Under the pieces are notes generated by a model. The model made no database searches, was not told where the DNA came from, and was given only the letters and a program-made list of their open reading frames with translations. The translations under genes were made by a program, and so were the position numbers. DNA of 64,000 nt from Acidobacteriota bacterium (GTDB lineage: Bacteria; Acidobacteriota; Polarisedimenticolia; J045): the NCBI GenBank assembly GCA_046331425.1, contig JAXLQU010000020.1:8788-72787 (forward strand). Reading direction: 5' to 3'. This document shows positions 1 through 14,194 of this stretch, one piece after another. The first letter of the stretch is position 1. Each line of letters begins with the position of its first letter.

Positions 1-136
1 GGTGCTCGCCAAGCTCGGAAAGAAGTCCGAAGCGATCACGGTCGCCCAGCAATCGCAGAACTTGGGTAAGGGGAACGAGACCTACGCGTTCTTCAGCGCT
101 CAAATCGCCAAAGCGATCGAGGACTGGAAGAAGTAG
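1..136 (+). CDS. 3' end of a CDS truncated by the window edge (VLAKLGKKSEAITVAQQSQ...AIEDWKK*), helical TPR-like tail
   Basis: Open frame 2..136 ending in TAG, 13 bp before bshC; product not identifiable. Confidence 0.6.
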   Translation, partial: VLAKLGKKSEAITVAQQSQNLGKGNETYAFFSAQIAKAIEDWKK

Positions 137-149
137 GCGAGCCACACGG

Positions 150-1739
150 GTGTCTTCCAGTCTGTTCCAAGCGTACGTAACGGGTGAGGCTCGACGATTC
201 TTCGGGCCTCATCCGTTTTCTGTCGACGAGCGCCGCGCAGCAGTCCGCCGAGCGGTGCGTCCACTCGAGGCAGCCGTCGCGAGTGGTCTCACGACCCAGA
301 ACGCGCGATACGCATCGAGCGCCGCGCGCGAGGCACACCTCGATGCGCTCCGATCGGGCGCTGCTGCGGTCGTCACCGGACAACAAGTCGGACTGTTCCT
401 CGGACCGCTCTACACCATCTACAAGGCGGCGACCGCCGTGCGTGTCGCGCAGTCGTTGTCGCAAGAGTCGGGGCAGCCCGTGGTTCCGATCTTCTGGCTG
501 CAAACCGAAGATCACGATCTGGTCGAGATCGCGAGTTGTGCTGTCTCCCATGGCCAGGCCGAGACGCTCACGCTCTCGCTGCCTGCCGACCCGCATCAGC
601 GCGTTTCGATCGCGCATCACTCACTCCCTGCGTCGGTGATCGAGCAACTTTCCGTACTGCGCACGGCTCTCGCGCACTTGCCTCATGCCAACACTCACCT
701 CGAGCGACTCGAGCGTCACTATCGAGCGGGCGTTGGATGGGCGGATGCGTTCGCGCACGTGCTTGCGGAACTGTTCGCAGACGACGGTCTGGTACTGATC
801 GATCCGCGTGATCGCGCGTTCGGCGTAGCTGCGGCGCGGGTCCACCGAACAGCGCTGCGAAACGCCAGCCCAATCGCGGACGCCTTGGCGCAGCGTGTCT
901 TGGAACTCGAGGCGGCCGGATACGAGGCTGCGATCGCTGTGCGCCCGAAAGCGCCACTCGCGTTCTTCCATCCGCTCGGCGCCACCGGAGCACGCTATCG
1001 ACTCGAACCGGCCGCGGGCCGATTCGCCGAAGTCGGCGGCAACAGCGTGCACTCTCTCGAGGAACTGTGTGCGGCACTCGATGCCGACCCGCTGAGCTTC
1101 AGCACCAGCGCGCTGCTGAGACCGATCCTGCAGGACACGTTGCTTCCGACCGCCGCCTATGTCGGCGGCCCAGGCGAGGTTGCCTACTTCGCGCAGATGG
1201 CGCCGCTGTACGCTGCGTTCGATCTCGCCATGCCGCTGGTGGTTCCACGGGCGCGGTTTCGGGTTGTCGACGATCGCGCGCGCCGGCTGCTGGAACGCTG
1301 GAGACTCACGCCCGCCGATGCAGAACGATCGGAAGATGCATTGCTCGCGCACTGCCATGCGTTGTCGGGTAAGGCCGTCGCAACCGACTCGCTCGAGCAG
1401 GCGCTGCTCACGCCGTTTTGCACCGCACTCGAGCAACTCACGCCGCAACTCGTCAGCGCCGGTCCGGGGGTCGACGTGGCGATCGAGAAGACACGAGACA
1501 GGGTCAAGTCCGACGTGTCCAAGTTGCTCGCCAAGTACCAGAAGGCCTCGATCCATCGCGATGCGGTGATGGTCGATGAAGTGCGCCGGCTGAGGCGACT
1601 TTTGTTTCCCGAGAACAGACCTCAAGAGCGCACCTACGGACTGGCGTCGTTCGCCGCACGATTCGGAGAGCGCGCCTTCATCGACAAAGTGCTTGCGAGC
1701 GTCGTGCCGTTCGATGCTGCGATAAGGGATCTTGCATGA
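150..1739 (+). CDS. bshC: Bacillithiol biosynthesis cysteine-adding enzyme BshC
   Basis: Motifs VVTGQQVGLFLGPLYTIYKA, PIFWLQTEDHD, YVGGPGEVAYFAQ and C-terminal PQER; adjacent to bshB1/bshA. Confidence 0.93.
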   Translation: MSSSLFQAYVTGEARRFFGPHPFSVDERRAAVRRAVRPLEAAVASGLTTQNARYASSAAREAHLDALRSGAAAVVTGQQVGLFLGPLYTIYKAATAVRVAQSLSQESGQPVVPIFWLQTEDHDLVEIASCAVSHGQAETLTLSLPADPHQRVSIAHHSLPASVIEQLSVLRTALAHLPHANTHLERLERHYRAGVGWADAFAHVLAELFADDGLVLIDPRDRAFGVAAARVHRTALRNASPIADALAQRVLELEAAGYEAAIAVRPKAPLAFFHPLGATGARYRLEPAAGRFAEVGGNSVHSLEELCAALDADPLSFSTSALLRPILQDTLLPTAAYVGGPGEVAYFAQMAPLYAAFDLAMPLVVPRARFRVVDDRARRLLERWRLTPADAERSEDALLAHCHALSGKAVATDSLEQALLTPFCTALEQLTPQLVSAGPGVDVAIEKTRDRVKSDVSKLLAKYQKASIHRDAVMVDEVRRLRRLLFPENRPQERTYGLASFAARFGERAFIDKVLASVVPFDAAIRDLA

Positions 1740-1790
1740 GCGACTTCGGAGTCGGCATCACCGTGGGGCATCTTGCATGAGCGACTTCGG
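1729..1790 (+). repeat. 21-bp direct repeat ATCTTGCATGAGCGACTTCGG (1729-1749 and 1770-1790, period 41 bp) at the bshC/bshB1 junction
   Basis: Two exact copies read directly from the sequence. Confidence 0.95.
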
Positions 1791-2538
1791 TATCGACGTG
1801 CTTGCCTTTGGCGCTCACCCGGATGATGTCGAGCTGTTCTGCGGGGGCACGATGATTCGGCTCGCCGACCTCGGTCATAGCACCGGCATCGTCGATCTCA
1901 CGCGTGGCGAGCGGGCCAGTCATGGAACGCCCGAGCAGCGGGCGATCGAAACCGCCAACGCCAGCCGTGTGCTCGGCCTGCGACATCGCGAGAACGTGGA
2001 ACTTCCGGACACCGGCCTCGACCCCGCGTCACGGCCGCAACTCACCAAGGTGGTCGAGGTGTTGCGACGGCTGCGACCCGAGATCGTGCTCGTGCCGTGG
2101 ACCGAGGAACGACACCCCGATCACGCCGCCGCAGGCGAGTTGCTGCTACGCGCCGTGTACTACAGCGGTGTGCGTCAGTTCGAGTGCAGTCCGCCAGCCG
2201 ATCGATTCGTGCCGCGACAGCTTCTGCACTACCCGATGCGTTATCGCATCGCCCCCAGTTTCATCATCGACACCTCAGATGCCGCCGAGCGAAAGCTGCA
2301 GGCGATCGCCTGCTACATCAGCCAGATCACTCGCCAACCGGGCGATGATCCAACGCTCATCAGCTCGCACCGCGCCATGGCGGCGATCGAGGCGCGCGAT
2401 CGCTACTACGGCAGCATGATCGGCGTCGCTCAGGGGGAACCGCTGCGCACCGTCGCAACGCCAGGGTTGGTCGATCTGGTGAAGCAGTTCCGCGACAACC
2501 CATTCTCCGACGCGCACGCCTTCGAGCCACTGCGGTGA
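1777..2538 (+). CDS. bshB1: N-acetyl-alpha-D-glucosaminyl L-malate deacetylase BshB1 (PIG-L family)
   Basis: DVLAFGAHPDDVE, DLTRGE and HPDH motifs; lies between bshC and bshA; start placed at ATG 1777 rather than the ORF-track 1732. Confidence 0.9.
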   Translation: MSDFGIDVLAFGAHPDDVELFCGGTMIRLADLGHSTGIVDLTRGERASHGTPEQRAIETANASRVLGLRHRENVELPDTGLDPASRPQLTKVVEVLRRLRPEIVLVPWTEERHPDHAAAGELLLRAVYYSGVRQFECSPPADRFVPRQLLHYPMRYRIAPSFIIDTSDAAERKLQAIACYISQITRQPGDDPTLISSHRAMAAIEARDRYYGSMIGVAQGEPLRTVATPGLVDLVKQFRDNPFSDAHAFEPLR

Positions 2539-3713
2539 GCCGACCGCTCTCGATCGGCATCGTCTGTTTCCCGACTTTGGGGGGCAGTGGAGTCGTCGCC
2601 TCCGAGTTGGCCGCAGGACTTGCGCAGCGCGGACACGCGATTCACCTCATTGCGAGCGCGCATCCGATTCGCGAGTTCGCGCCCTCGTCCAAGGAAACGT
2701 TCCACGAAGTGCAAGTGCCAACCTATCCATTGTTGGAACACGCGCCGTACGCGCTGGCAGTTGCCTCCAAGATCGTCGACGTCGCGCAAGCTCACGGGCT
2801 CGACCTGCTGCAAGTGCATTACGCGGTGCCGCATGCCGCCAGCGCGCTGCTTGCACGGCAGGTGCTTGGCCGTGCGGCCCCAGCGCTGGTCACGTCGTTG
2901 CATGGCACCGATGTCACCAAGGTCGGCGCTCATCCCGCCTATCGTGCGGTCACGGCGTTCGCTGTCGCCGGCTCCGATGGAATTACGGTTCCCTCCGACT
3001 TTCTGCGTCGCGAGGCGCGCGCGCAACTTGGGATCGCGGACACACACGCCATCGATGTGCTGCCCAACTTCGTCGACACCGATCACTTCGTACCGGCCGC
3101 CATCCGCGATCGCTCGCAACTCGCCTCGCTGTTTGCGCCCGGCGCGCACGCGAGCAACGGCCCGTACCTCATGCATGTCTCCAACTTTCGCGAGGTCAAG
3201 CGCGTCGGCGATTTGATGGAAGTTCTCGTGCGCGTTCGGCGCCACCTGCCGGCACGACTCGTGTTGGTCGGCGACGGGCCGACGCGCGAGCTTTCAGTGA
3301 GTCGCGCCAACGCACTGGGTGTTACCGATGCCGTACGATTCCTCGGCCGACGCGCCGAATTCGTGCAATTGCTCCAACATGCCGACGGCTTCTTGCTCCC
3401 CAGCGAGTCGGAGAGCTTTGGAGTGGCTGCACTCGAAGCACTCAGCACCGGCGTTCCGGTCTTTGCGTACCACGTGGGCGGGTTGCCAGACGTGGTTGTC
3501 GATGGTGTCGGCTGTCTCGTCACCCCCTTCGATCTCGACGCCTTGGCGCAGGCGGTGATCGACGTCCTTATCAACCCTGAGCGACACGCTGCGATGGGCC
3601 GGGCCGCACGCGCACACGCTGTCGCCACATTCGGCGAGCAGCCGGCACTCGATCGATACGAACACTACTTCCGGCAGGTGATCGCCCGCCGTCAGACCGA
3701 GACGACATCATGA
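2535..3713 (+). CDS. bshA: N-acetyl-alpha-D-glucosaminyl L-malate synthase BshA (GT4)
   Basis: IGIVCFPTLGGSGVVASEL, HYAVPHA, TSLHGTDVT, HVSNFREVKR and ESFGVAALEA motifs; GTGA overlap with the bshB1 stop. Confidence 0.93.
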   Translation: MSRPLSIGIVCFPTLGGSGVVASELAAGLAQRGHAIHLIASAHPIREFAPSSKETFHEVQVPTYPLLEHAPYALAVASKIVDVAQAHGLDLLQVHYAVPHAASALLARQVLGRAAPALVTSLHGTDVTKVGAHPAYRAVTAFAVAGSDGITVPSDFLRREARAQLGIADTHAIDVLPNFVDTDHFVPAAIRDRSQLASLFAPGAHASNGPYLMHVSNFREVKRVGDLMEVLVRVRRHLPARLVLVGDGPTRELSVSRANALGVTDAVRFLGRRAEFVQLLQHADGFLLPSESESFGVAALEALSTGVPVFAYHVGGLPDVVVDGVGCLVTPFDLDALAQAVIDVLINPERHAAMGRAARAHAVATFGEQPALDRYEHYFRQVIARRQTETTS

Positions 3714-6175
3714 AGAGATTTGCCCTTGCCTTTGCAATCATGAGCGCAGCCGCCACCGGCGCGGTGGCGTTGGAGTCCGGCATGAATGCAGGAGCCTTGG
3801 CGCACGAGCTCGATCGTGTCGCAAACACCACCCGCGTGTTGTACGTCGCCGCGCATCCCGACGACGAGAACACACGACTGCTTGGGTATCTCGCCAACAA
3901 CCGCCACATGCTGGCTGCGTATCTTTCGATGACGCGTGGCGGTGGCGGGCAAAACCTGATCGGTTCGGAGCAAGGTGTTCTGCTCGACGTGATTCGCAAC
4001 GAGGAACTGCTCGCGGCGCGGCGTATCGACGGCGCGGTGCAGCGCTTCACGCGGATGCGCGACTTCGGCTATTCCAAGTCGGCCGCCGAGACCTTGGCGA
4101 TTTGGAATCATGACGAAGCGCTGGCCGACGTGGTCTGGGCGATTCGCTCGTTTCAACCCGACATCGTGATCGCCCGCTTCGATGAAGATCCGCCCAATCA
4201 CGGGCACCACACGGCATCGGCGATTCTTGCGCGCGAAGCGTTTACCGCCGCCGCGGACCCCAAGCGATTTCCCGAGCAACTCAAAAGCGGCGTGATACCT
4301 TGGCAAGCCGCTCGGCTGCTGCGCAACATTTCGTCGTGGAGCGATGAACCGCCGCCACCCGAAGCGATCGCCTTGCAGGTCGGCGACTACGACGTGCGAC
4401 TCGGTGTCAGCTACGGCGAGTTGGCGGCCCAATCGCGCAGTCAACACAAGAGCCAAGGCTTCGGTGTTTCAGGGTCGCGCTCCCCTTCTGTGGAACGTTT
4501 CCTATGGTTGGCCGGCACGAAGCCACAATCCGACATTTTTGAAGGGCTGGACTCCACCTGGGGTCGCTTCGGCGCGCCGGCCGCAGCGCTCGAGAAGGCA
4601 CTCGACGAGGCGCGCGCAACGCTCGAGCGCGATCGTCCCGAGCGCGCCCTCCCGGCTCTGCTCGCCGCGCATCGCGCCTTCGACCCGCTGCCCGACGAAC
4701 CTCGTGTGCGTGACGCCAAGCAGCGTCTCGATCGCCTGATTTGTGTTGCCGCCGGTGTGTTCGCACGCGCGACAGCCGAGAAGCCGGTTGCTGTTCCTGG
4801 CAGCGACGTGAAGCTGAGCATCGAGGTGGTGATGCGTCAGCCCGCGTCGATCACTTTGCAACGGCTGCTGCTGCCACAAGGGCCGGCGATCGATGTTGGC
4901 GCCGCGCTGGTGCCCGGCACGCCAAAGGTGCTCGAACAAAGGCTCACCATTCCAGGCGATGCCGCCATCACCACTCCGTTCTGGTTGGCGTCGACACCGC
5001 AAGCGGGGCACTACGTCGTCGCCAACCAACGACTGGTCGCCGAGCCAAGCACGCCGCCGGCCGTCGCCGTTGAACTTCAGTTCACGATCGGCGATCGACA
5101 GATCGTGCTGCACGAGCCGGTGCTTCATTCGTGGACAGACCCAGTGCAAGGCGAGCGGTTGAGACCGTTGATGATCGTGCCGCCCGCCACCGTGACACCG
5201 ACGCGCGAGGCCGTGATGTTCCCCAACGGAAGAAGCACGACGGTATCGCTACGCGTGCGCACCGGGCGCGACGATCTGAAGGGTGACTTGAGCTTGCCGA
5301 TGCCGGCAGGCTGGAAAGTCGAGCCGGCATCACAGCCGGTAACGTTGGCGAAGGTTGGCGACGAAGCGACGCTCGAGTTCACCGTCACGCCGCCTGCCGA
5401 CGCCAAGGCGGTCGCCGCTACGCCGGTCTTCACGAGCGACGGCCGCAACTGGTCGTATCGCGAAGACCGCATCGACTACCCGCACATCCCGTTTCAGCTC
5501 GTGCTTCAACCCGCCGCGCTGAGACTCGTTCCCCTCGCGCTGAACCTCCCCAAGGGGACCATCGGCTACATTCGCGGTTCGGGCGATAGCGTCGCCGACG
5601 ATCTCGCGCACGTCGGCTTGCATGTCGAGATGCTCGACGACGAGGCGCTGCGAAGCGGCGATCTCGGTCGCTTTGCCGCGATCGTTGTCGGCATTCGCGC
5701 CTACAACACGCGCGACGTCGTGCGCGCTGCGCATGCGCGCCTGATGAAGTATGTCGAGGCCGGTGGCACGGTCGTGGTGCAGTACAACACGAACAATCGG
5801 CTTTCCTCGTTGGACGGATCACTCGGTCCGTTTCCGCTCGAGATCGGGCGCGATCGCGTCACCGACGAGAAGGCGATCATGACCACCTTGATACCCGATC
5901 ACCCTGTGTTGAACAGGCCCAACAAGATCTCCACCGCCGACTTCGAGGGCTGGGTTCAAGAGCGCGGCATCTACTTCGCCCTCAAGTGGGATCCGCGCTA
6001 CAAGCCGCTGTTCTCGGCAGCCGATCCCGACGAGAAGCCGACGCAGGGAAGCACGCTGATCGCGGAGTACGGCAAGGGGCGATACGTCTACACGGGGCTG
6101 GCGTTCTTCCGGCAGTTGCCTGCCGGCGTGCCCGGTGCCTATCGCCTGTTCGTCAACTTGATTGCCGGACAATAG
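3710..6175 (+). CDS. Exported LmbE/PIG-L family deacetylase with NEW3-like Ig domain and C-terminal class I GATase-like domain
   Basis: Signal peptide MKRFALAFAIMSAAATGAVA; AHPDDE, DFGYSK and HGHH metal motifs; C-terminal GLAFFRQLPAGVPGAYRLFVNL; ATGA overlap with bshA. Confidence 0.85.
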   Translation: MKRFALAFAIMSAAATGAVALESGMNAGALAHELDRVANTTRVLYVAAHPDDENTRLLGYLANNRHMLAAYLSMTRGGGGQNLIGSEQGVLLDVIRNEELLAARRIDGAVQRFTRMRDFGYSKSAAETLAIWNHDEALADVVWAIRSFQPDIVIARFDEDPPNHGHHTASAILAREAFTAAADPKRFPEQLKSGVIPWQAARLLRNISSWSDEPPPPEAIALQVGDYDVRLGVSYGELAAQSRSQHKSQGFGVSGSRSPSVERFLWLAGTKPQSDIFEGLDSTWGRFGAPAAALEKALDEARATLERDRPERALPALLAAHRAFDPLPDEPRVRDAKQRLDRLICVAAGVFARATAEKPVAVPGSDVKLSIEVVMRQPASITLQRLLLPQGPAIDVGAALVPGTPKVLEQRLTIPGDAAITTPFWLASTPQAGHYVVANQRLVAEPSTPPAVAVELQFTIGDRQIVLHEPVLHSWTDPVQGERLRPLMIVPPATVTPTREAVMFPNGRSTTVSLRVRTGRDDLKGDLSLPMPAGWKVEPASQPVTLAKVGDEATLEFTVTPPADAKAVAATPVFTSDGRNWSYREDRIDYPHIPFQLVLQPAALRLVPLALNLPKGTIGYIRGSGDSVADDLAHVGLHVEMLDDEALRSGDLGRFAAIVVGIRAYNTRDVVRAAHARLMKYVEAGGTVVVQYNTNNRLSSLDGSLGPFPLEIGRDRVTDEKAIMTTLIPDHPVLNRPNKISTADFEGWVQERGIYFALKWDPRYKPLFSAADPDEKPTQGSTLIAEYGKGRYVYTGLAFFRQLPAGVPGAYRLFVNLIAGQ

Positions 6176-6178
6176 CTC

Positions 6179-6322
6179 GTGGACGTACGACAACAGGCAA
6201 TCCCAGCAACGGAAGAGCCGCCACCGGTGGTGAAACACTGGCGCACTGTCTATCTGCTGGTCGTCGCCGAACTCGCGCTGTTGGTGTTGCTGTTTTGTCT
6301 GCTGAAGCAGTGGGCGTCGTGA
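6179..6322 (+). CDS. 47-aa single-TM small protein (MDVRQQAIPATEEPPPVVKHWRTVYLLVVAELALLVLLFCLLKQWAS), not in the ORF track
   Basis: GTG 6179 to TGA 6322; fills the gap exactly; GTGA overlap with the symporter start; one hydrophobic helix. Confidence 0.7.
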   Translation: MDVRQQAIPATEEPPPVVKHWRTVYLLVVAELALLVLLFCLLKQWAS

Positions 6323-8007
6323 CCGCTCTCGACTGGTTCGTGCTGATCGGCACGTTGGCCTTCATTGCGATCTACGGAGCTTGGAAGTCGCGCGATGTGC
6401 GCACTGTCGACGACTACATGCGCGGCGGCAACACGCTCCACTGGCCGACCATCGGCCTGAGCATCATGGCGACGCAGGCCAGCGCCATCACGTTCCTCTC
6501 GACGCCCGGTCAAGCCTACGAAGACGGCATGCGCTTCGTGCAGTTCTACTTCGGGCTGCCGCTGGCGATGATCGTGATTGCTGCCGTGTTTGTGCCGATC
6601 TATCACCGGCTGAAGGTCTACACCGCATACGAGTACCTCGAGCATCGCTTCGATCATCGGGTGCGCTACCTGGGAGCGGTGCTGTTTTTGATCCAGCGCG
6701 GCCTTGCGGCCGGAATCACGATCTATGCGCCGTCGATCATTCTCAGCACTCTGATGGGCTGGCCGTTGCATCTGACCAACGTCGCAATGGGGTTGTTCGT
6801 GGTCGCCTACACCGTTTCAGGCGGCACCCGCGCGGTGAGTCACACGCAGAAGCAACAGATGATCGTGATGCTCGGCGGGATGGCGCTTGCCGGTGTGGTG
6901 ATTGCGTACAACCTGCCCGAGTCGGTGTCGTTGCCGAGCGCCGTGAAACTCGCCGGCGCACTCGGTCGCATGAATGTGGTCAGCTTCGACTTGGATTTCA
7001 GCAATCGGTACAACTTCTGGTCCGGTATCACCGGCGGGTTCTTTCTGGCGTTGGCCTACTTCGGCACCGACCAATCGCAGGTGCAGCGGTACCTCGCCGG
7101 GCGATCGGTAGGCGAGATCCGTTTGGGCCTGCTCTTCAACGGTCTGTTCAAGATCCCGATGCAGTTCGGCATCCTGTTCATCGGCGTGCTGGTCTTCGTG
7201 TTCTACCTGTTCAACGCGCCGCCGCTGTTCTTCAACAAACCCACGCTCGATCTCGTCGCACAGACGACGCACGCGGCCGAGCTCCAGTCGCTGGAGCAAC
7301 GATTCGGCGAGGCGTTCACCCTGCAGAAGGATGCGGCGAGCGCGTATGTAGCGACGCTGCGGTCGGGTCAGGGCGAGGACGCCGCAAAGTTGGCGCTACA
7401 AGATGCGTTCAAGCAGACCCAGGCATTGAGGCAGGAGGCAAAGGCGCTCGTCGCCGACGCGCTTCCGGGCAAAGAGACCAAGGACACCGACTACGTCTTC
7501 ATCTCGTTCGTCCTGAAATACCTGCCGCACGGCTTGGTTGGACTGTTGATCGCGGTGATCCTGTGTGCCGCGATGAGTTCAACGTCGAGCGAACTGGCTG
7601 CACTCGGGTCGACCAGCATGATCGACTTGTACAAGCGGCTTGGCTCTGGCTCAGCCGCGACGGTCGAGACCTCCGCATCGGATCTTCGAATCTCCAAGCT
7701 GTTCACGGTGCTGTGGGGATTTGCGGCTGTCGCATTCGCCACGTTCGCCTCGCTTGTCGACAACTTGATTCAAGCGGTGAACATCTTGGGTTCGATTTTC
7801 TACGGAACGCTTCTAGGGCTGTTTGTGGTGGCCTTCTTCTTGCGTCGCGTGACGGCCACACCGGTACTGGTTGCAGCGCTGATCGCGCAAGCTGCGGTGA
7901 TCGTGCTGTTCTTCAGCTCCGACCTCGGATTTTTGTGGTTCAACGTGGTCGGCTGCGGAATCGTCGTGGTGCTGTCGTCAGTCTTCGAGGCAATGCGGCG
8001 GAGGTGA
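6319..8007 (+). CDS. Sodium:solute symporter (SSS family)
   Basis: Starts MTALDWFVLIG (GTG 6319); SIMATQASAITFLSTPGQAY, YFGTDQSQVQRYL and AAMSSTSSEL motifs; many TM helices. Confidence 0.9.
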   Translation: MTALDWFVLIGTLAFIAIYGAWKSRDVRTVDDYMRGGNTLHWPTIGLSIMATQASAITFLSTPGQAYEDGMRFVQFYFGLPLAMIVIAAVFVPIYHRLKVYTAYEYLEHRFDHRVRYLGAVLFLIQRGLAAGITIYAPSIILSTLMGWPLHLTNVAMGLFVVAYTVSGGTRAVSHTQKQQMIVMLGGMALAGVVIAYNLPESVSLPSAVKLAGALGRMNVVSFDLDFSNRYNFWSGITGGFFLALAYFGTDQSQVQRYLAGRSVGEIRLGLLFNGLFKIPMQFGILFIGVLVFVFYLFNAPPLFFNKPTLDLVAQTTHAAELQSLEQRFGEAFTLQKDAASAYVATLRSGQGEDAAKLALQDAFKQTQALRQEAKALVADALPGKETKDTDYVFISFVLKYLPHGLVGLLIAVILCAAMSSTSSELAALGSTSMIDLYKRLGSGSAATVETSASDLRISKLFTVLWGFAAVAFATFASLVDNLIQAVNILGSIFYGTLLGLFVVAFFLRRVTATPVLVAALIAQAAVIVLFFSSDLGFLWFNVVGCGIVVVLSSVFEAMRRR

Positions 8008-8161
8008 GCCGCGAGCGTTGCAGTGGTCACGATCGACCTCGGTGTGCTGCACTCGTCAACTGCTCGGCGATCACTGTCTCCGCAACCAGCGATCAGAGGT
8101 GCACGACTCTGCACTCGGAGCGCACTCTGGATCGTTCTTCGCTAGCTTCAGTTCAACCGAG

Positions 8162-11100
8162 CTATGGGCAGGCGCGTCCCGTGCGCTGGACGCCGTTCGA
8201 TCTCGCGCCAAGCGTGCCGACCCCACACGAGTTCTTGGCGCGCACGAGGTAGAAGTACGCGTTCGCTGCAACTGGCTTGGACGGCTCGGCCGTTGTGTTG
8301 TCCGTGCCATCGGACTCCAGGCACGTGGCGGTTGCGCCGAAATCGGAGGCGATGCTCGAGCGCAGCGTGTCGTAAAGCGGCGCCGTGCCGCCGGGAGTCA
8401 ATGGCGCACTCCAGGTCAGCGCAGTCTTCGTCGTGAAGATCAGTGCCCGCGCCTCACCTGGAATCGACCAGACGGTGTTGCTCGCGTCGTTGCAGTCGAA
8501 TTCCGGACCGAAGCGCCCATCGCCATCGTCATCGGCGAGGCCGAGTGCAGAATTGGAGCGAATCGAGTGATAGTCGCTGCGATGATCGACCCACGCCACG
8601 TGAGTCCATCTGTCCGCGCTGAAGCTGAGCGCAGGCCACGCGGCGTCGGAGCAGCCTGGACCGTCCCCGGCTTCAACGCGGATCGAAGCCGCATGCCACG
8701 ATTGCCCCGCGTTCTCCGAGTAGTTGACATAGGTATCAAACCCCGGCTTGCCACCGCAGCTATTGCGGTTGTCGACCCAGGTGACACGCGCGTTGCTGCC
8801 GCGAAGCGCCACGGTCGGGACGATGAACCCCTCGGTCATCGCCGATTGATGAGCCCCAGGCGCATCCCCCGTGTCGACCTGTACGGCGCTTGCAAGCCAG
8901 GTTGCTCCTTGGTCTGTCGAGCGATTCGCAAAAACCTGGTCTTTTCCAGTTCGATCGTCGGTCCAGGTCACGAGCACGTTGCCTGCGTCGGCCGCCATCA
9001 CCACGTTGAACGAACTGTTGGCGCCGAGCGCGTCGCCATCGAGTCGCTGGTCCGTGCTCCAGGGTGGATCGCCGTTGGTCACCGAGCGTCTGACGAACAC
9101 GTCGTACGCACCATTGCGAGCATCAAACCACGCGATGTAAGCGCCGCCCGAGTTATCCGCGGCAATCGTGGTTCCGTTGGGAGGCGCTCCGACGATTCCA
9201 CCCGCGAGGTCGATCGCCCCGCGCCAGGTGTTGCCCGCATCCCAAGAGCGATTGACATAGTAGTGCCACGTTCCGAGCGGACCATTAGCGGCGTTGAACA
9301 ACACATAGACATGCCCGCTGGCATCGGACGTCATTCCGTCGAGCCATGCACCGCTGACACCGGTACCGTTGACCTTCGTGTCGGTTGGAAACTGCCACGT
9401 CGAGCCGCGGTCGTGGGAGACGTTGACGTAGGCGTCCATATCTTGGTCCGAGCCGGACCCGGTGACGCGATCGTCTGACCAACCGAGATAGACGTTGCCG
9501 CTCGCATCGCACGACAGGAATGCGGGGTTGATCATCGAGGCCTGTGTTCCGGCGTGGTCGACTCGGACCGGGGACGCGAGCCAGGTGCTGCACAGGTCGC
9601 ACGATTTGTTGAAGTACACGGATGGACTGGAACCGTTCCCCATCTCGGTCCACGCCACATAGACACAGCCACTGCCGTCGGTACAAACGCGCGGGACGAA
9701 CGAAGCGGCCGATCCTGCGCTGGTGTTGGTGTCGAGGCGCACATCGTTGACTCGCCAGGTTGCCCCGTGGTCTGCCGAGCAGTTCGCGTAGATGTCCTGG
9801 CGTCCATCGCGTTCGTCCATCCATGCGGCGAAGACCCGGCCCGTTCCATCACTCGCGACGGCCGGCAACATTGCTGCGCTGTTGCTCATGCTCGGTGTGC
9901 TGTCGAGGCGCGTGTCGGCCGCGTTCCACGTGTCGCCGCTGTTGCTGGAGTGGTTGGCGAAGATGTCGTTGTCGGCGCTCGGCCGCGCGTCGTTACGGCG
10001 GTCGTTCCAAATCGCAAACCACCCGGTCGATGTGTCGTGCGCGAGCCGCACTTGTCCCGCCGTGGTGGCGGCCGCCGTGCCGGTGTCGAGGCGTTGATCG
10101 CCCAGCCATGTGGCCCCTGTATCGTGCGAGCGATTGGCGTACGGCTCCTGACCACCGCGCCGCGTGTCGAGCCACGCGACTCCCGCGTCCGTGCCGCTTG
10201 CTGCAAGGCGCGGCGCTGATGAAGTGCCGGCAGTATTGCCCGGATCGAGTCGCTGGTCGGGACTCGCCCAGGTGCTGCCGAAATTCGTCGAACGCGTCGC
10301 CCAGACATGTGTCGCACCGGTGCGGTTGTCCTGCCACGCCACGTGAACCGCGCCCGCTGTGACCGCGATGTCGGGCAGCTCGGCTTTGGTACCCGCCGAC
10401 GCGTGGTCGACGCGCGCCGCAGTTCCCCATGTCGAGCCGTTGTTGGTGGACACGTTGACATACACCATCGAGGCCAATCCTGCGGCACGTTGCCACACGA
10501 CGTAGACACGAGAGCCGGCTGGTTCGAGAGCGATGCGCGGCTGAGTCGACGCGGGCGTTGCATCGTTGTCGAGTCGTTTCGCAGCGAGCCACGAGGCGCC
10601 GGCCGTCGTTGTGCTGCTGGCCCAGATCTTTCCGCTGCTGTCGGCCCACGTCACATGCGCGAAGCCACCCGAACGAGCGACGAGACTCAAAGGACTCGTG
10701 CCACCGTTACCGCTGTCGACGATTTGCGGCGCGCCCCACGTCAAACCTGCGTCCGTCGAAACGCTGACCGAAACGCTCTCCGTCGACCAGCTCCAGGACC
10801 ATGCTGCGTAGACGGTTCCCGATCCGTCGGTGGCGATCTCGGGTGAATGCAGTGTCTTCTTGCCGCGGAACTCATCGGTGTTGAGGCGCTTCACTTCGCG
10901 CCATGTGGCCGCGCCATCGATTGACGAGACGGCGTAGAGGTCATCGTTGTCGGTGATCGCTTCTCGCCACAGGACGACGACTCGCGACGAAGCATCGCAG
11001 GTAATGCGCACTTCGGGCGGGCCGAACGGCAACATCCCCGCCGGAAGAGTGCGCTTCACGCGCGTCGCCGCGGACCAGGTGGCTCCGCCATTGGTTGTTT

Positions 11101-11362
11101 TGCTGAGGTTGATGTCGCCGGAGAAACCGGAAGCGCCATGGCTGCTGTCGATCCAAACCGCGTAGGCAACGTTGGGCGATGGCGAGCAGATCTCGGCACC
11201 GGAGGAATCACTCGGCCCGGCGAGGCCGGTCCGTCGCAGGGCTTTGTCGGGAGACGAGAACTGGCCCAGGGCAAGGAACGGAAAGGCGATCGCTACGAGC
11301 GAGACGAGTAGCTGGCGCGCGGTTCTGTGTGACGTCGATCGGCCGACTGCTGCTGTCCACAT
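8162..11362 (-). CDS. Large exported Asp-box (BNR/sialidase-like) beta-propeller protein with a C-terminal Cys-containing domain
   Basis: 1066 aa; N-terminal hydrophobic signal; ~15 SxDxGxTW-like boxes; ends DCND...YFYLVRAKNSCGVGTLG...RACP. Confidence 0.8.
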   Translation of the reverse strand: MWTAAVGRSTSHRTARQLLVSLVAIAFPFLALGQFSSPDKALRRTGLAGPSDSSGAEICSPSPNVAYAVWIDSSHGASGFSGDINLSKTTNGGATWSAATRVKRTLPAGMLPFGPPEVRITCDASSRVVVLWREAITDNDDLYAVSSIDGAATWREVKRLNTDEFRGKKTLHSPEIATDGSGTVYAAWSWSWSTESVSVSVSTDAGLTWGAPQIVDSGNGGTSPLSLVARSGGFAHVTWADSSGKIWASSTTTAGASWLAAKRLDNDATPASTQPRIALEPAGSRVYVVWQRAAGLASMVYVNVSTNNGSTWGTAARVDHASAGTKAELPDIAVTAGAVHVAWQDNRTGATHVWATRSTNFGSTWASPDQRLDPGNTAGTSSAPRLAASGTDAGVAWLDTRRGGQEPYANRSHDTGATWLGDQRLDTGTAAATTAGQVRLAHDTSTGWFAIWNDRRNDARPSADNDIFANHSSNSGDTWNAADTRLDSTPSMSNSAAMLPAVASDGTGRVFAAWMDERDGRQDIYANCSADHGATWRVNDVRLDTNTSAGSAASFVPRVCTDGSGCVYVAWTEMGNGSSPSVYFNKSCDLCSTWLASPVRVDHAGTQASMINPAFLSCDASGNVYLGWSDDRVTGSGSDQDMDAYVNVSHDRGSTWQFPTDTKVNGTGVSGAWLDGMTSDASGHVYVLFNAANGPLGTWHYYVNRSWDAGNTWRGAIDLAGGIVGAPPNGTTIAADNSGGAYIAWFDARNGAYDVFVRRSVTNGDPPWSTDQRLDGDALGANSSFNVVMAADAGNVLVTWTDDRTGKDQVFANRSTDQGATWLASAVQVDTGDAPGAHQSAMTEGFIVPTVALRGSNARVTWVDNRNSCGGKPGFDTYVNYSENAGQSWHAASIRVEAGDGPGCSDAAWPALSFSADRWTHVAWVDHRSDYHSIRSNSALGLADDDGDGRFGPEFDCNDASNTVWSIPGEARALIFTTKTALTWSAPLTPGGTAPLYDTLRSSIASDFGATATCLESDGTDNTTAEPSKPVAANAYFYLVRAKNSCGVGTLGARSNGVQRTGRACP

Positions 11363-11621
11363 TGTGTCGCCCTCATGCGATTGAGCCGATGGCCTACCGA
11401 ATTAAGCCGACGCCCGAGGTTGCCGCTCCCTGCGCTTCCCGGCGGTGCCGGCATTGTGTCACAGCGTGGGCGTTGCCGAAGGTACGGGCAGGTTGGGTCG
11501 GCGTCTTGTCCTTTTGCAGATCACAGGTCAGGGCGCTGTTCGGAGAATAGGCCGGAGGCAGGTAACGACCGTTGAGCGTGTGATCGGCGTGAGGTGCGCG
11601 AAGGTTTGATTGACGCACCGT

Positions 11622-11875
11622 ATGCGCGGCGGGTTGCGCTGGCGATCGAGATGAACCATGAGGCCAATGGTACCGATCGCGTCGTCCCGATGGCCGATGA
11701 CAGAGCGCTTCTCGTGCCTGTATGTCAACGTCGACCGCCCGTTGGTCCCGCCGAAGCAGATTCTTCGAGCGTTGTTGTTGTTGGACTTCTACTCGATCCG
11801 AAGCGAGCGACGACTGTTCGCTTTCGGGAGTGCTGCAATCAACCTGGTGCGACTCAGAAACATCGCGAGCGGCAA
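11622..11875 (+). pseudogene. Internally deleted IS5-family transposase remnant
   Basis: MRG start at 11622; LYVNVDRPLVPPKQILRALLLLDFYSIRSERRL (DUF772-like N-terminus) joined directly to FAFGSAAINLVRLRNI (C-terminal end motif); no DDE core. Confidence 0.7.
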
Positions 11876-11894
11876 CGTGACGTCGACATGTTCT

Positions 11895-12500
11895 TCAGGG
11901 CTTGCCCCCCTTCTTGGGCTTTACCTCTCGGCCGGCGTACCGAAAGCCATCGAACTCGCCTGTCTCACTGATGTCAAAAACAGTGGGCACGGCTGTCGCG
12001 TATCCAAGAACAGCATCCGTGAATGGGTACTCGACAAGATAAACCGGAAACCTCGACCGAACAGTCTCATAGAGCTGGCCTTTGGTTGTGTAAAACAAAA
12101 ACACGAGGTTGCTTTCGCCGTCTAGTTGCCAGCCCGCAGCCTCGATTTGCTGGAAGAGCTGTCTCCCAGCTTTGCAGTTCATCCCGAAGAAGACCACCTT
12201 GGCTCGTTTCCCTCGAATGACCTCGGAAAGTCGCAGCTTCGGTTGTTGGTTGTTGGTTCGAGCCTCGGATGGCTCCAACAAAAGTTCCGGATATGGCTTT
12301 CCCAACGCGTCGCGCAACCTCTTGCAAGACAGCTCGTACGCGCGCGCGTCTTCCTTAGCAGCGTAGAGTTGTGCGAGATCAAGTGGTAAGTCCCTCCTCA
12401 GTGGGCGTCGTCCAGGTACATCACCAACTGTTCCGCCACATGCGGTGGCCAGCCCAGCAATGGCAAGGATCATCGCCCAGCGTTTGAAGACAACTCTCAC
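11895..12500 (-). CDS. Hypothetical lipoprotein, probable thioredoxin-like fold
   Basis: Lipobox LATAC; VVFFGMNCKAG and PTVFDISETG...RYAG resemble TlpA-type elements; AT-richer than flanks by eye. Confidence 0.55.
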   Translation of the reverse strand: MRVVFKRWAMILAIAGLATACGGTVGDVPGRRPLRRDLPLDLAQLYAAKEDARAYELSCKRLRDALGKPYPELLLEPSEARTNNQQPKLRLSEVIRGKRAKVVFFGMNCKAGRQLFQQIEAAGWQLDGESNLVFLFYTTKGQLYETVRSRFPVYLVEYPFTDAVLGYATAVPTVFDISETGEFDGFRYAGREVKPKKGGKP

Positions 12501-12526
12501 GTGTTTTCCATCCGTTCAGTCGTGGC

Positions 12527-12679
12527 GCGGAAGCAATTCAACCGGCGTTTCATTGTCTTGGCCGACTATCGCGGATATCTGGGCGCAGGGAAAGCGATCG
12601 TTCTCGCGGTGAGGGCCAGGTCGACGCCACCGTGATCAGTCTTCAGCGCGCTATCTGACTCGCTGCGCAATCGCGCCGG
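12527..12679 (-). repeat. Repeat copy A: 113-bp core (12567-12679) plus oriIS-like terminus
   Basis: Core differs from copy B at 4 of 113 positions; minus-strand end GCCGGTTGAATTGCTTCCGC. Confidence 0.9.
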
Positions 12680-12919
12680 TACACACACTCGCCAGCCTGA
12701 CACCTCAACCGAACGAGGTGCAGAGACTTGGTTGCAATCAACAGCAAGGGCGTTGGCAGGTACGCACAATGGCTGACCAGCAACATCGCCGTGAAGCCAC
12801 CACGGTCGGCGAGCGTGTCAGAAACGACCGGGACTGTGTGCGACAGCAGCGGGAGTAGGTTCGGTTTTGTGATCGACTGCATCGATGGCGAGGCTCCAGG
12901 ACGCAACCCGCACACCTTC

Positions 12920-13969
12920 TCAGCGCAACGAGTACCAGACCCCGCGCCCACGTCCGTGCTGGTTGAGATGGCCATGCTCGACGAGCGCCCGGAAGTGCTG
13001 CTTGAGCGTGTTGCGGCTCGTGCCGGTCAGCTTGATTGCCTCGCCAATGGTCACGCGGCCGTGCGCGCGTGCGAACTCGACGATCCGCAGCGAGAGATCC
13101 GGCAGCACGCCAAGGACCAGCTTCTCGCGCTCGACCTTCCTCTCGAGCCGCCGAACCTGCTCAGCCAGCGAGCGCAGGAAGAACTCGAGCCACGGCTGCC
13201 AGTTCGGAGCGTCGGTCCTGATCGTGCACTGGGTCTGTCGCAGCGCAAGGTAGTAGGCCTCCTTGCTCTGCTCGATCACGCTCTCGAGCGAACTGTACGG
13301 CACGTACGCGTAGCCAGCCTGCAGCAACAGCAACGTCGTCAGCACGCGGCTGAGTCGACCGTTCCCGTCCTGGAATGGGTGGATCTCGAGGAACACGACT
13401 GTGAACAGGCCGATGATCAACAGAGGGTGTAGGTGACGCGCCTCGCGCTGCTCGCGCACCCATGTCACCAGTTCGAACATCAATCGGGGCGTGTCGAAGG
13501 GTGTGGCTGTTTCAAAGACAACACCAAGCTGCGTGCCGCTCTCGTCAAACGCGGCGACGCTGTTGGAAGTGGTCTTGTAGTTTCCTCGGTGCCAGGTGTC
13601 CTTCGCGCTGTGGCGGAGCAGGATCTGATGCAACTGCTTGACGTGGTTCTCGGTAATCGGAATGTCCTGCCACGAGGCAAACACCAGATCCATCAGCTCC
13701 GCGTAGCCGGCGACCTCCTGCTCGTCGCTTGTGGAGAGCGTCGTGATCTCGAGGTTCGAGAGCAGACGTTCCACGTCGCGGTCGGACATCCGATTCCCCT
13801 CGATGCGGGTGGACGAGCCGATGCTCTCGATCGTCGCCACGCGTCGGAGGGCCGAAAGTCGTTCCGGAGCAAGCGCACTCAGAGCGCGCCACGCGCCCTT
13901 GAACTCGTCGATCCTGGCAATCAGCCGCAGGATCTCGGGTGTGATCTGGACGGTTTCGGACCGGAGCAT
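12920..13969 (-). CDS. Fic family protein with C-terminal winged helix
   Basis: Intact HPFQDGNGRLSR motif; N-terminal STRIEG inhibitory-type motif; C-terminal wHTH (GRVTIGEAIKLTG...GRGRGVWY). Confidence 0.92.
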   Translation of the reverse strand: MLRSETVQITPEILRLIARIDEFKGAWRALSALAPERLSALRRVATIESIGSSTRIEGNRMSDRDVERLLSNLEITTLSTSDEQEVAGYAELMDLVFASWQDIPITENHVKQLHQILLRHSAKDTWHRGNYKTTSNSVAAFDESGTQLGVVFETATPFDTPRLMFELVTWVREQREARHLHPLLIIGLFTVVFLEIHPFQDGNGRLSRVLTTLLLLQAGYAYVPYSSLESVIEQSKEAYYLALRQTQCTIRTDAPNWQPWLEFFLRSLAEQVRRLERKVEREKLVLGVLPDLSLRIVEFARAHGRVTIGEAIKLTGTSRNTLKQHFRALVEHGHLNQHGRGRGVWYSLR

Positions 13970-14194
13970 GGGCCATCACTACACCCAATTGCACCCATTT
14001 TCGAGCACCAAGACCACAAACGCGCCCGAGTCCACCGGGGGGCTGCGGCCACCCAGTTCGGCTCTCCAGCACGTCGCGGACATTCATCCGTCTGTGGAAT
14101 CCCCTAACGCTCGGCTGATTGCACTCCGCGCACTCCTTGCGCGCCAAACTCGCACTCTTGGTGGACCGGGACTAGGAGGCAGCGACTCCTGCCG

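Follow-up and report, generated by a model that had tools for sequence, protein, structure and literature searches.

A conserved hydrolase and importer module joined to bacillithiol biosynthesis genes in Acidobacteriota and other Gram-negative phyla

The beginning of a 64,000-nucleotide stretch of DNA from an uncultured Acidobacteriota bacterium of activated sludge/wastewater (contig JAXLQU010000020.1, positions 8,788 to 72,787, assembly GCA_046331425.1; the whole stretch is referred to here as the window) holds the larger part of a seven-gene operon in which the genes for bacillithiol (BSH) synthesis are followed by genes for a predicted exported hydrolase and a Na+/solute symporter (SSS). 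All seven genes lie on the plus strand and specify, in order, a DUF2911-TPR protein, BshC, BshB1, BshA, an 821-aa hydrolase of the LmbE/PIG-L superfamily, a 47-aa membrane protein and the symporter (Table 1). Families were assigned by Pfam gathering scores and NCBIfam equivalog cut-offs. BshA, BshB1 and BshC each exceed the cut-off of their own equivalog model, and the identities given to the three genes by an earlier, sequence-only reading of the window stand; each is an ordinary representative of its family. The hydrolase, the small open reading frame (ORF) that follows it, the symporter and the DUF2911 protein constitute a conserved extracytoplasmic "hydrolase + importer" module of Gram-negative phyla, and this module is physically joined to bsh genes in Acidobacteriota, Binatia, Myxococcota, Aminicenantes and Chthoniobacterales.

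The sequence-only reading had begun the operon at bshC and had each coding sequence from there to the symporter linked to the next by a 4-bp start/stop overlap or a 3-bp gap. Coupling of this kind is evident at the bshB/bshA junction (GTGA, 2535-2538) and at the bshA/hydrolase junction (ATGA, 3710-3713). The bshC/bshB junction is not one simple 4-bp overlap, and the 3-bp gap placed before the symporter leads instead to a separate 47-codon ORF. A symporter start 3 bp after the hydrolase is ruled out by the different reading frame and by the conservation of this small ORF; the start adopted here, GTG 6319, generates a GTGA overlap with the small-ORF stop, and the public gene call uses the alternative GTG 6310 (565 aa). 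Nor does the operon begin at bshC. The DUF2911+TPR gene precedes it, and the translation of its 3' end at the edge of the window agrees residue for residue with the C-terminus of P0243 (288 aa, PF11138), which is encoded on contig L161 of the same organism; on L161, divergent genes precede the DUF2911 gene. Two conserved partners, the 47-aa membrane protein and the DUF2911 protein, had been overlooked; the size and the conservation of the system both exceed what that reading had seen.

Table 1. Genes and sequence features of the operon and its margins, in window coordinates.
Feature	Position	Strand	Remarks
3' end of the gene for an exported DUF2911+TPR-like protein (last 44 codons and TAG)	2-136	+	first gene of the operon
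bshC, bacillithiol cysteine-adding enzyme, 529 aa, GTG start	150-1739	+	TIGR03998 411 bits (cut-off 265.8); PF10079, PF24850
29-nt direct repeat spaced 41 nt (copies 1726-1754 and 1767-1795)	1726-1795	+	duplicates the bshC-stop/bshB-start junction
bshB1, GlcNAc-malate deacetylase, 253 aa, ATG start	1777-2538	+	TIGR04001 263 bits (cut-off 182.5)
bshA, GlcNAc-malate synthase, 392 aa, GTG start	2535-3713	+	TIGR03999 396 bits (cut-off 273.7)
Exported LmbE/PIG-L-superfamily zinc hydrolase, 821 aa	3710-6175	+	Pfam PIG-L, NEW3; AF2 model
ORF for a 47-aa protein with a single transmembrane helix, GTG start	6179-6322	+	not called in the public record; between hydrolase and symporter
Na+/solute symporter (SSS), 562 aa from GTG 6319	6319-8007	+	TIGR00813 207.4 bits (cut-off 184); PF00474 115.6 bits
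Weak terminator-like hairpin 3' of the symporter	8115-8140	+	such sites not above shuffled expectation

The reach of this arrangement was measured in two comparisons. One, anchored on the hydrolase, takes in at least 80 species-level genome loci (38-61% identity) from Bacteroidota, Myxococcota, Acidobacteriota, Verrucomicrobiota, Ignavibacteria, Binatia and Eisenbacteria; the other, anchored on bshC, takes in at least 80 loci from Acidobacteriota, Binatia and Myxococcota. In the first set, the SSS gene lies directly downstream of the hydrolase gene and on the same strand in 52 of the 72 assessable loci, and two further pairs are split, one by inserted genes and the other by an assembly gap. 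The bsh genes lie within 6 kb of the hydrolase in 10 loci of this set, all of them non-Bacteroidota, and their order varies: bshC-bshA-hydrolase-small-SSS in L001, bshA-bshB-bshC divergent from hydrolase-SSS in Myxococcus (L003), hydrolase-bshC-bshB-bshA-SSS in Aminicenantes (L061) and hydrolase-small-SSS-bshB-bshA in Chthoniobacterales (L080). In the second set, the hydrolase is adjacent in 67 of 80 loci and the SSS in 63 of 80, and most of the loci that lack the hydrolase are contigs that end too early. The layouts around bshC are either co-directional, DUF2911-bshC-(bshB)-bshA-hydrolase-small-SSS, or divergent, the latter in Myxococcaceae. Linkage of the LmbE-NEW3 hydrolase and its SSS to bsh genes, proposed from the window, is therefore far from rare in Acidobacteriota, Binatia and Myxococcota; it extends over at least four lineages with differing gene orders. 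Persistence of the linkage after the genes have been reordered speaks for a functional connection. In about one third of the bsh-linked clusters, bshC and bshA are present with no bshB beside the hydrolase (L084, L087, L095, L098, L103, L110, L114, L116, L118, L121 and others).

The module as a whole ranges over Bacteroidota, Ignavibacteria, Acidobacteriota, "delta-proteobacteria"/Myxococcota and Verrucomicrobiota, a set that overlaps the Gram-negative phyla predicted to make BSH (PMC6282198). In some flavobacteria a bshB gene lies ~9 kb from the module, which is treated as family-level synteny. The flavobacterial loci L028-L054 also share conserved synteny from -8.4 to -1.3 kb relative to the hydrolase; judged by eye, the genes in this interval would encode a CcsBA-type cytochrome c biogenesis protein (~1060 aa), a KdsC-like phosphatase, a UbiA-like prenyltransferase, Maf and CorA, and the conservation may be family-level synteny only. 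In SSS-less Bacteroidota the hydrolase can be followed by a carrier of another kind: by eye, a DctA/GltP-type dicarboxylate:cation symporter in Pedobacter gandavensis (L012:12524-13849) and an MFS transporter-like protein 3' of the hydrolase at L047:12506-13840. These may be non-orthologous replacements of the importer. Two clusters of bsh, hydrolase and SSS genes that are of Myxococcota/Acidobacteriota type, with ~49-51% BshC identity to the window, stand under the names "Fredinandcohnia sp." (L098, DATGOH010000084.1) and "Comamonas sp. KCTC 72670" (L143, BNCN01000001.1); both records are probably misbinned or mislabelled.

The 821-aa hydrolase matches PIG-L (PF02585) over residues 44-177 with 52.3 bits against a cut-off of 28.2. 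Its NEW3 match, already part of the sequence-only reading, lies at residues 523-567 and is marginal (25.6 bits, cut-off 24.4). An AlphaFold2 (AF2) model of high predicted accuracy (pLDDT 91, pTM 0.90) divides the protein into a signal peptide (residues 1-20), the LmbE domain (~40-270), a helical linker (284-347), three β-sandwiches (~350-610) and a ThuA-like α/β domain (615-821). The resemblance of the last to ThuA (PF06283) is weak and below the cut-off (16.5 bits against 33.4, E 0.01). The catalytic signature holds firm across the family: in 70 sequences, down to 38% identity, A48-H49-P50-D51-D52 and H164-G-H166-H167 vary little or not at all, and the TRG motif is invariant as well. The kinship of the zinc motif with that of BshB, noted from the window, is sustained by hhalign, in which the two proteins align with 91% probability and with their AHPDD, TRG and HxxH motifs superposed, the AHPDD and HxxH of the hydrolase falling on the HPDD and HPDH of BshB. 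In Foldseek searches the N-terminal domain is matched best by MshB, LnmX and diacetylchitobiose deacetylases, each with probability 1.00; Foldseek returned no full-length structural analogue, and the family profile, when run against PDB sequences, yielded weak LmbE matches only, none of them full-length. The 551 residues outside the LmbE domain match at least 1,431 clusters at 50% identity (E <= 1e-30), and all full-length matches to this part are preceded by an N-terminal segment of ~270-320 residues, which fixes the architecture of the protein. Public annotation of the homologues says only "PIG-L family deacetylase" or "LmbE family".

Export was judged from N-terminal hydropathy (Kyte-Doolittle, 12-residue window) and the cleavage-site pattern. 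The N-terminus of the window protein is signal-peptide-like (MKRFALAFAIMSAAATGAVA|LE): a predicted Sec-type signal, MKR-FALAFAIMSAAATGAVA-LE, with a charged n-region, a hydrophobic h-region and a small-x-small cleavage site. The signal peptide claimed by the sequence-only reading extends across the family. A mean of at least 2.0 over 12 residues upstream of the catalytic domain is reached in 102 of 124 homologues, with most of the others just below, and signal-peptide-like N-termini are found in essentially all homologues, including those of the bshB-less clusters; the "A-x-A|Q" type is typical of Bacteroidota.

Of the 120 loci that contain the SSS N-terminus, 115, spread across phyla, have between hydrolase and symporter a small ORF that encodes the motif PP-x-L-x-S-W-x3-Y and a transmembrane helix and stops at the SSS start. 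Its median length in these 115 loci is 48 aa, it ends exactly 26 residues past the Trp in every case, and a 4-nt overlap joins its stop to the SSS start in 86 of them. The peptide of the window (…EEPPPVVKHWRTVYLLVVAELALLVLLFCLLKQWAS) matches the pattern exactly. Searches of Pfam and NCBIfam with the small ORF found no family for it. We take it to be a genuine micro-protein, and it is most likely an accessory subunit of the symporter. Small coupled membrane partners of SSS carriers are familiar from PanF/YhdT (DUF997), ActP/YjcH (DUF485) and the VC_2705 family/DUF4212; the window SSS resembles these pairs in that a small, translationally coupled membrane protein precedes the carrier, and differs from them in that the 47-aa protein matches none of the DUF997, DUF485 and DUF4212 Pfam families. 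In six Chitinophagaceae loci (L011, L031, L041, L072, L073 and L076), an extra two-TM (transmembrane) ORF of ~55 aa, for example MSKKHEQHRPKLRIAAIFCIILGLLLGFTIKRVQVGLVIGIALGLLTGSMWSKSSD, is inserted between the hydrolase and the small ORF.

The symporter scores far below the models of PutP (55.8 against a cut-off of 515), PanF (44.1/328), YidK-type PRK10484 (121/401) and VC_2705 (35.6/321), and on these scores it is assigned to no characterised SSS subfamily. The closest solved structures are those of NIS, SMCT1, SiaT and SMVT (E 1e-38 to 1e-42), as against 1e-22 for SGLT/vSGLT; sequence similarity places it in the anion/carboxylate branch of the SSS family rather than with the glucose SGLTs, since NIS, SMCT1, SiaT and SMVT transport anions or carboxylates. 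Arg127 belongs to the TM3 motif LFLIQRGLAAG and does not vary in any of 118 sequences; NIS, SMCT1 and SMVT have T or M at this position. In the alignment with SiaT, the sialic-acid SSS, Arg127 lies three residues, one helical turn, from Arg135, which we take to be the residue that binds the carboxylate of sialate. The invariant arginine would suit an anionic sugar acid, such as glucosamine-malate (GlcN-malate), as substrate, and is no proof of one. A predicted helical insertion of ~90 aa (residues ~304-392), its length kept in the orthogroup, sets the carrier apart from all solved homologues, NIS, SMCT1, SiaT and SMVT among them.

The DUF2911 partner recurs in both comparisons. Clustering of neighbouring ORFs finds an exported DUF2911 protein of ~285 aa (PF11138, E 2e-46) in 36 of the hydrolase-anchored loci: in Bacteroidota its gene is convergent and just after the SSS gene, and in Chthoniobacterales and Aminicenantes the hydrolase gene follows it directly. 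In 75 of the 80 bshC-anchored loci it immediately precedes bshC or follows bshA in convergent orientation. The PF11138 assignment of P0243 is a precomputed one; a Bacteroidota DUF2911 partner scores 157.9 bits against a cut-off of 27. An AF2 model (pLDDT 89) has a β-sandwich followed by three TPR-like hairpins. A PDB sequence search with the DUF2911 protein gave no match.

The module is probably coupled functionally to BSH metabolism. What follows is put forward more tentatively, as something a little short of probable: extracytoplasmic 2-N-acyl cleavage of BSH, of bacillithiol S-conjugates (BS-conjugates) or of N-acetylglucosamine-malate (GlcNAc-malate), followed by Na+-coupled re-import of GlcN-malate for use by BshC. 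BshC takes GlcN-malate, a dicarboxylate, as its direct substrate; MshB, the chitobiose deacetylases and Mca all cleave an N-acyl group on C2 of a GlcN glycoside. Outside the cytoplasm, the hydrolase would likewise attack the 2-N-acyl bond of a GlcN-malate glycoside, either as a Bca/Mca-like amidase that releases Cys or Cys-S-R and GlcN-malate from exported BSH, bacillithiol disulfide (BSSB) or BS-conjugates, or as a deacetylase of GlcNAc-malate. The symporter with its small subunit would return the anionic GlcN-malate to the cell, BshC would re-ligate cysteine to it, and the DUF2911 protein would serve as an extracytoplasmic accessory. The complete form of this scheme is a periplasmic BSH cycle, in which BSH or its conjugates reach the periplasm and are cleaved by a dedicated multidomain LmbE amidase aided by DUF2911, and a new two-component SSS (carrier and ~45-aa micro-protein) brings GlcN-malate back for BshC-mediated re-synthesis; it is possible, and somewhat more doubtful than the cleavage and re-import at its core. 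The function of the module rests on inference.

Several facts weigh against salvage of BSH. The hydrolase scores 23.3 against a cut-off of 182.5 for BshB1 (TIGR04001), 16.9 against 195.25 for BshB2-Bca (TIGR04000) and 38.6 against 277.15 bits for Mca (TIGR03446), the last being nonetheless its best NCBIfam match (a Bacteroidota homologue reaches 57.9 bits against Mca). By these measures it is a separate LmbE subfamily, outside BshB, Bca, MshB and Mca, and because the scores fall so far below the cut-offs, a substrate cannot be transferred to it from BshB1, BshB2 or Mca. In Bacteroidota, which make up the majority of the family, the module is conserved and is not adjacent to bsh genes. In ~18 of the 72 assessable loci the hydrolase stands without an SSS. 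The role of DUF2911 is left unexplained by its model, of which only the TPR tail found matches in the PDB by Foldseek. No run matched the locus when RNA-seq and metatranscriptome runs were searched for it, and we know of no BSH exporter or periplasmic BSH pool in these organisms.

The main rival to salvage is general scavenging of amino sugars and glycans: the exported enzyme would deacetylate GlcNAc oligosaccharides of the environment (chitin, peptidoglycan fragments) or some other N-acetylated sugar acid, the symporter would import the product, and the link to bsh genes would reflect no more than supply of a GlcN(Ac) precursor or shared regulation. The fold of the hydrolase matches diacetylchitobiose deacetylases almost as well as MshB, and NEW3, the three β-sandwiches and the ThuA-like domain are typical of glycan-active enzymes and would suit a larger carbohydrate substrate, which also counts against salvage of BSH. 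The family is abundant among polysaccharide degraders of the Bacteroidota and Myxococcota, the modules of Bacteroidota do not adjoin bsh genes, and a few loci have SusC-like receptors nearby, all of which points the same way. Scavenging leaves unexplained, however, why the module stays beside bshC/bshA through at least four gene orders and in several phyla; the SSS has its invariant TM3 Arg and its nearer kin among carboxylate/anion carriers, the sugar SGLTs being more distant; and in most genomes the module is not embedded in a typical polysaccharide-utilisation locus. On balance we consider scavenging unlikely.

Piracy would invoke the same chemistry with another source and purpose: the BSH, BSSB or GlcNAc-malate would be exogenous, taken from other bacteria such as Firmicutes prey of myxobacteria or fellow members of the sludge. 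The evidence for salvage of the cell's own thiol serves this alternative equally, and the carriers of the module are predators and degraders in dense communities (Myxococcota, Bacteroidota, activated-sludge Acidobacteriota). Against this, the module is tightly fused into one operon with the biosynthetic genes of the same cell, which suggests that it serves that cell's own BSH economy, and free BSH is not known to be available in these habitats; piracy is judged distinctly unlikely. It is improbable that the exported LmbE protein instead modifies the envelope by de-N-acetylating GlcNAc of the lipopolysaccharide (LPS) core, exopolysaccharide (EPS) or peptidoglycan, with a functionally unrelated symporter next to it. 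LmbE/PIG-L enzymes do take part in glycolipid and glycopeptide pathways (PIG-L and LnmX-like enzymes, for example), and an extracytoplasmic protein with large β-sandwich domains would fit such a role; yet translational coupling links hydrolase, small ORF and SSS, and the three are conserved together in 52-54 of the 72 assessable loci, the module was not found inside LPS or EPS clusters, and the bsh link would be left without explanation. Very improbable is the remaining pair of suggestions, that the 821-aa protein is the pathway's cytoplasmic BshB where bshB is missing beside the hydrolase, as in about a third of bsh clusters (e.g. L084, L087, L095, L116 and L118), or that bsh adjacency is due to chance: the first is contradicted by signal-peptide-like N-termini family-wide, in the bshB-less clusters too, and the window has a bona fide BshB1 besides; the second is excluded because the arrangement recurs in dozens of species-level genomes.

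Salvage of BSH by an exported amidase or deacetylase and a symporter has partial parallels in known systems. BshB1 and BshB2 (Bca) of Firmicutes share with the hydrolase the superfamily fold, the aligned H-x-D-D, T-R-G and H-x-x-H motifs and a genomic tie to BSH genes, but they are cytoplasmic, single-domain proteins of ~220-250 aa, whereas the hydrolase is predicted to be exported, has 821 aa and carries five extra structural units. MshB and Mca, of mycothiol metabolism in Actinobacteria, provide the best structural matches (1q7t, 4ewl and 1q74, E ~1e-8 to 1e-9), and with Mca there is already an LmbE enzyme whose cut falls on the Cys-GlcN amide of thiol conjugates; both differ in being cytoplasmic, in belonging to another phylum and another thiol, and in having no transporter partner. 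The diacetylchitobiose deacetylase (Dac) of Thermococcales has the LmbE fold (3wl3, 4xm2 and 8bgo; TM ~0.6 to the target) and feeds an amino-sugar uptake and catabolic route, but is cytoplasmic, single-domain and archaeal, with ~20% identity and no BSH context. Periplasmic glutathione salvage by γ-glutamyltranspeptidase (GGT) in Gram-negative bacteria shares only the proposed logic, in which an exported hydrolase cleaves the low-molecular-weight thiol of the cell, or conjugates of it, outside the cytoplasm and the pieces are re-imported. GGT is an Ntn-hydrolase and has no homology to the LmbE enzyme; by analogy, the module would be the BSH counterpart of GGT-based salvage.

To our knowledge, the BSH biology described so far is entirely cytoplasmic and mostly that of Firmicutes, with no transporter, salvage route or periplasmic enzyme. 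Full-text literature searches turned up no paper on the module, on the DUF2911 link or on any BSH transporter. If salvage is the correct reading, the module would be the first case in which a salvage pathway, a transporter and a periplasmic enzyme are assigned to BSH, and it would provide functions for DUF2911 and for a family of unannotated micro-proteins. It has been argued that no low-molecular-weight thiol is more widespread in bacteria than BSH (PMC6282198), and the shuttling of thiols between periplasm and cytoplasm has been raised only as speculation (Hiras et al., PMC6282198). The joining of the module to bshCBA offers a testable entry to BSH export, turnover and recycling, and bears on that proposed shuttling; it also gives a genomic context to "PIG-L family deacetylases" in the at least 1,431 clusters counted above, to DUF2911 and to a conserved micro-protein overlooked by gene callers. 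Genetically tractable carriers of the module exist in Myxococcus xanthus and the flavobacteria, so that the hypothesis is directly testable.

The irregular bshC/bshB junction of the window is the work of a direct repeat (Table 1), whose duplication of the junction creates a 14-codon mini-ORF (1736-1780). The mini-ORF is opened by the ATGA at 1736-1739 and is tied by ATGA overlaps to bshC on one side and to bshB on the other, where the true bshB ATG at 1777 overlaps its stop. For bshB1 itself, the TIGR04001 profile alignment starts at residue 21 of the ORF that opens with TTG 1732, and the public record calls a protein of 253 aa. The duplication is identical across contigs of four independent metagenome runs, which establishes that it is real in this population; it is missing from L081, the closest genus-level relative (72% identical).

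A scan of the region for promoters and terminators gave a number of sites not above shuffled expectation. After the hairpin that follows the symporter comes a convergent gene for a 1066-aa protein (8162-11362, minus strand), whose matches to BNR/Asp-box, Reelin-subrepeat and "PDIAV lipoprotein" families are all sub-threshold; it is probably unrelated to the operon. A spot check of ten large ORFs in the 8-64 kb part of the window found no other BSH-related genes. Within the first 14 kb, GC content falls to ~0.57 at 11500-13970, as against 0.62-0.66 elsewhere; a gene for a Fic/DOC-domain protein (12920-13969, minus strand) lies partly inside this patch, which may be an acquired islet.

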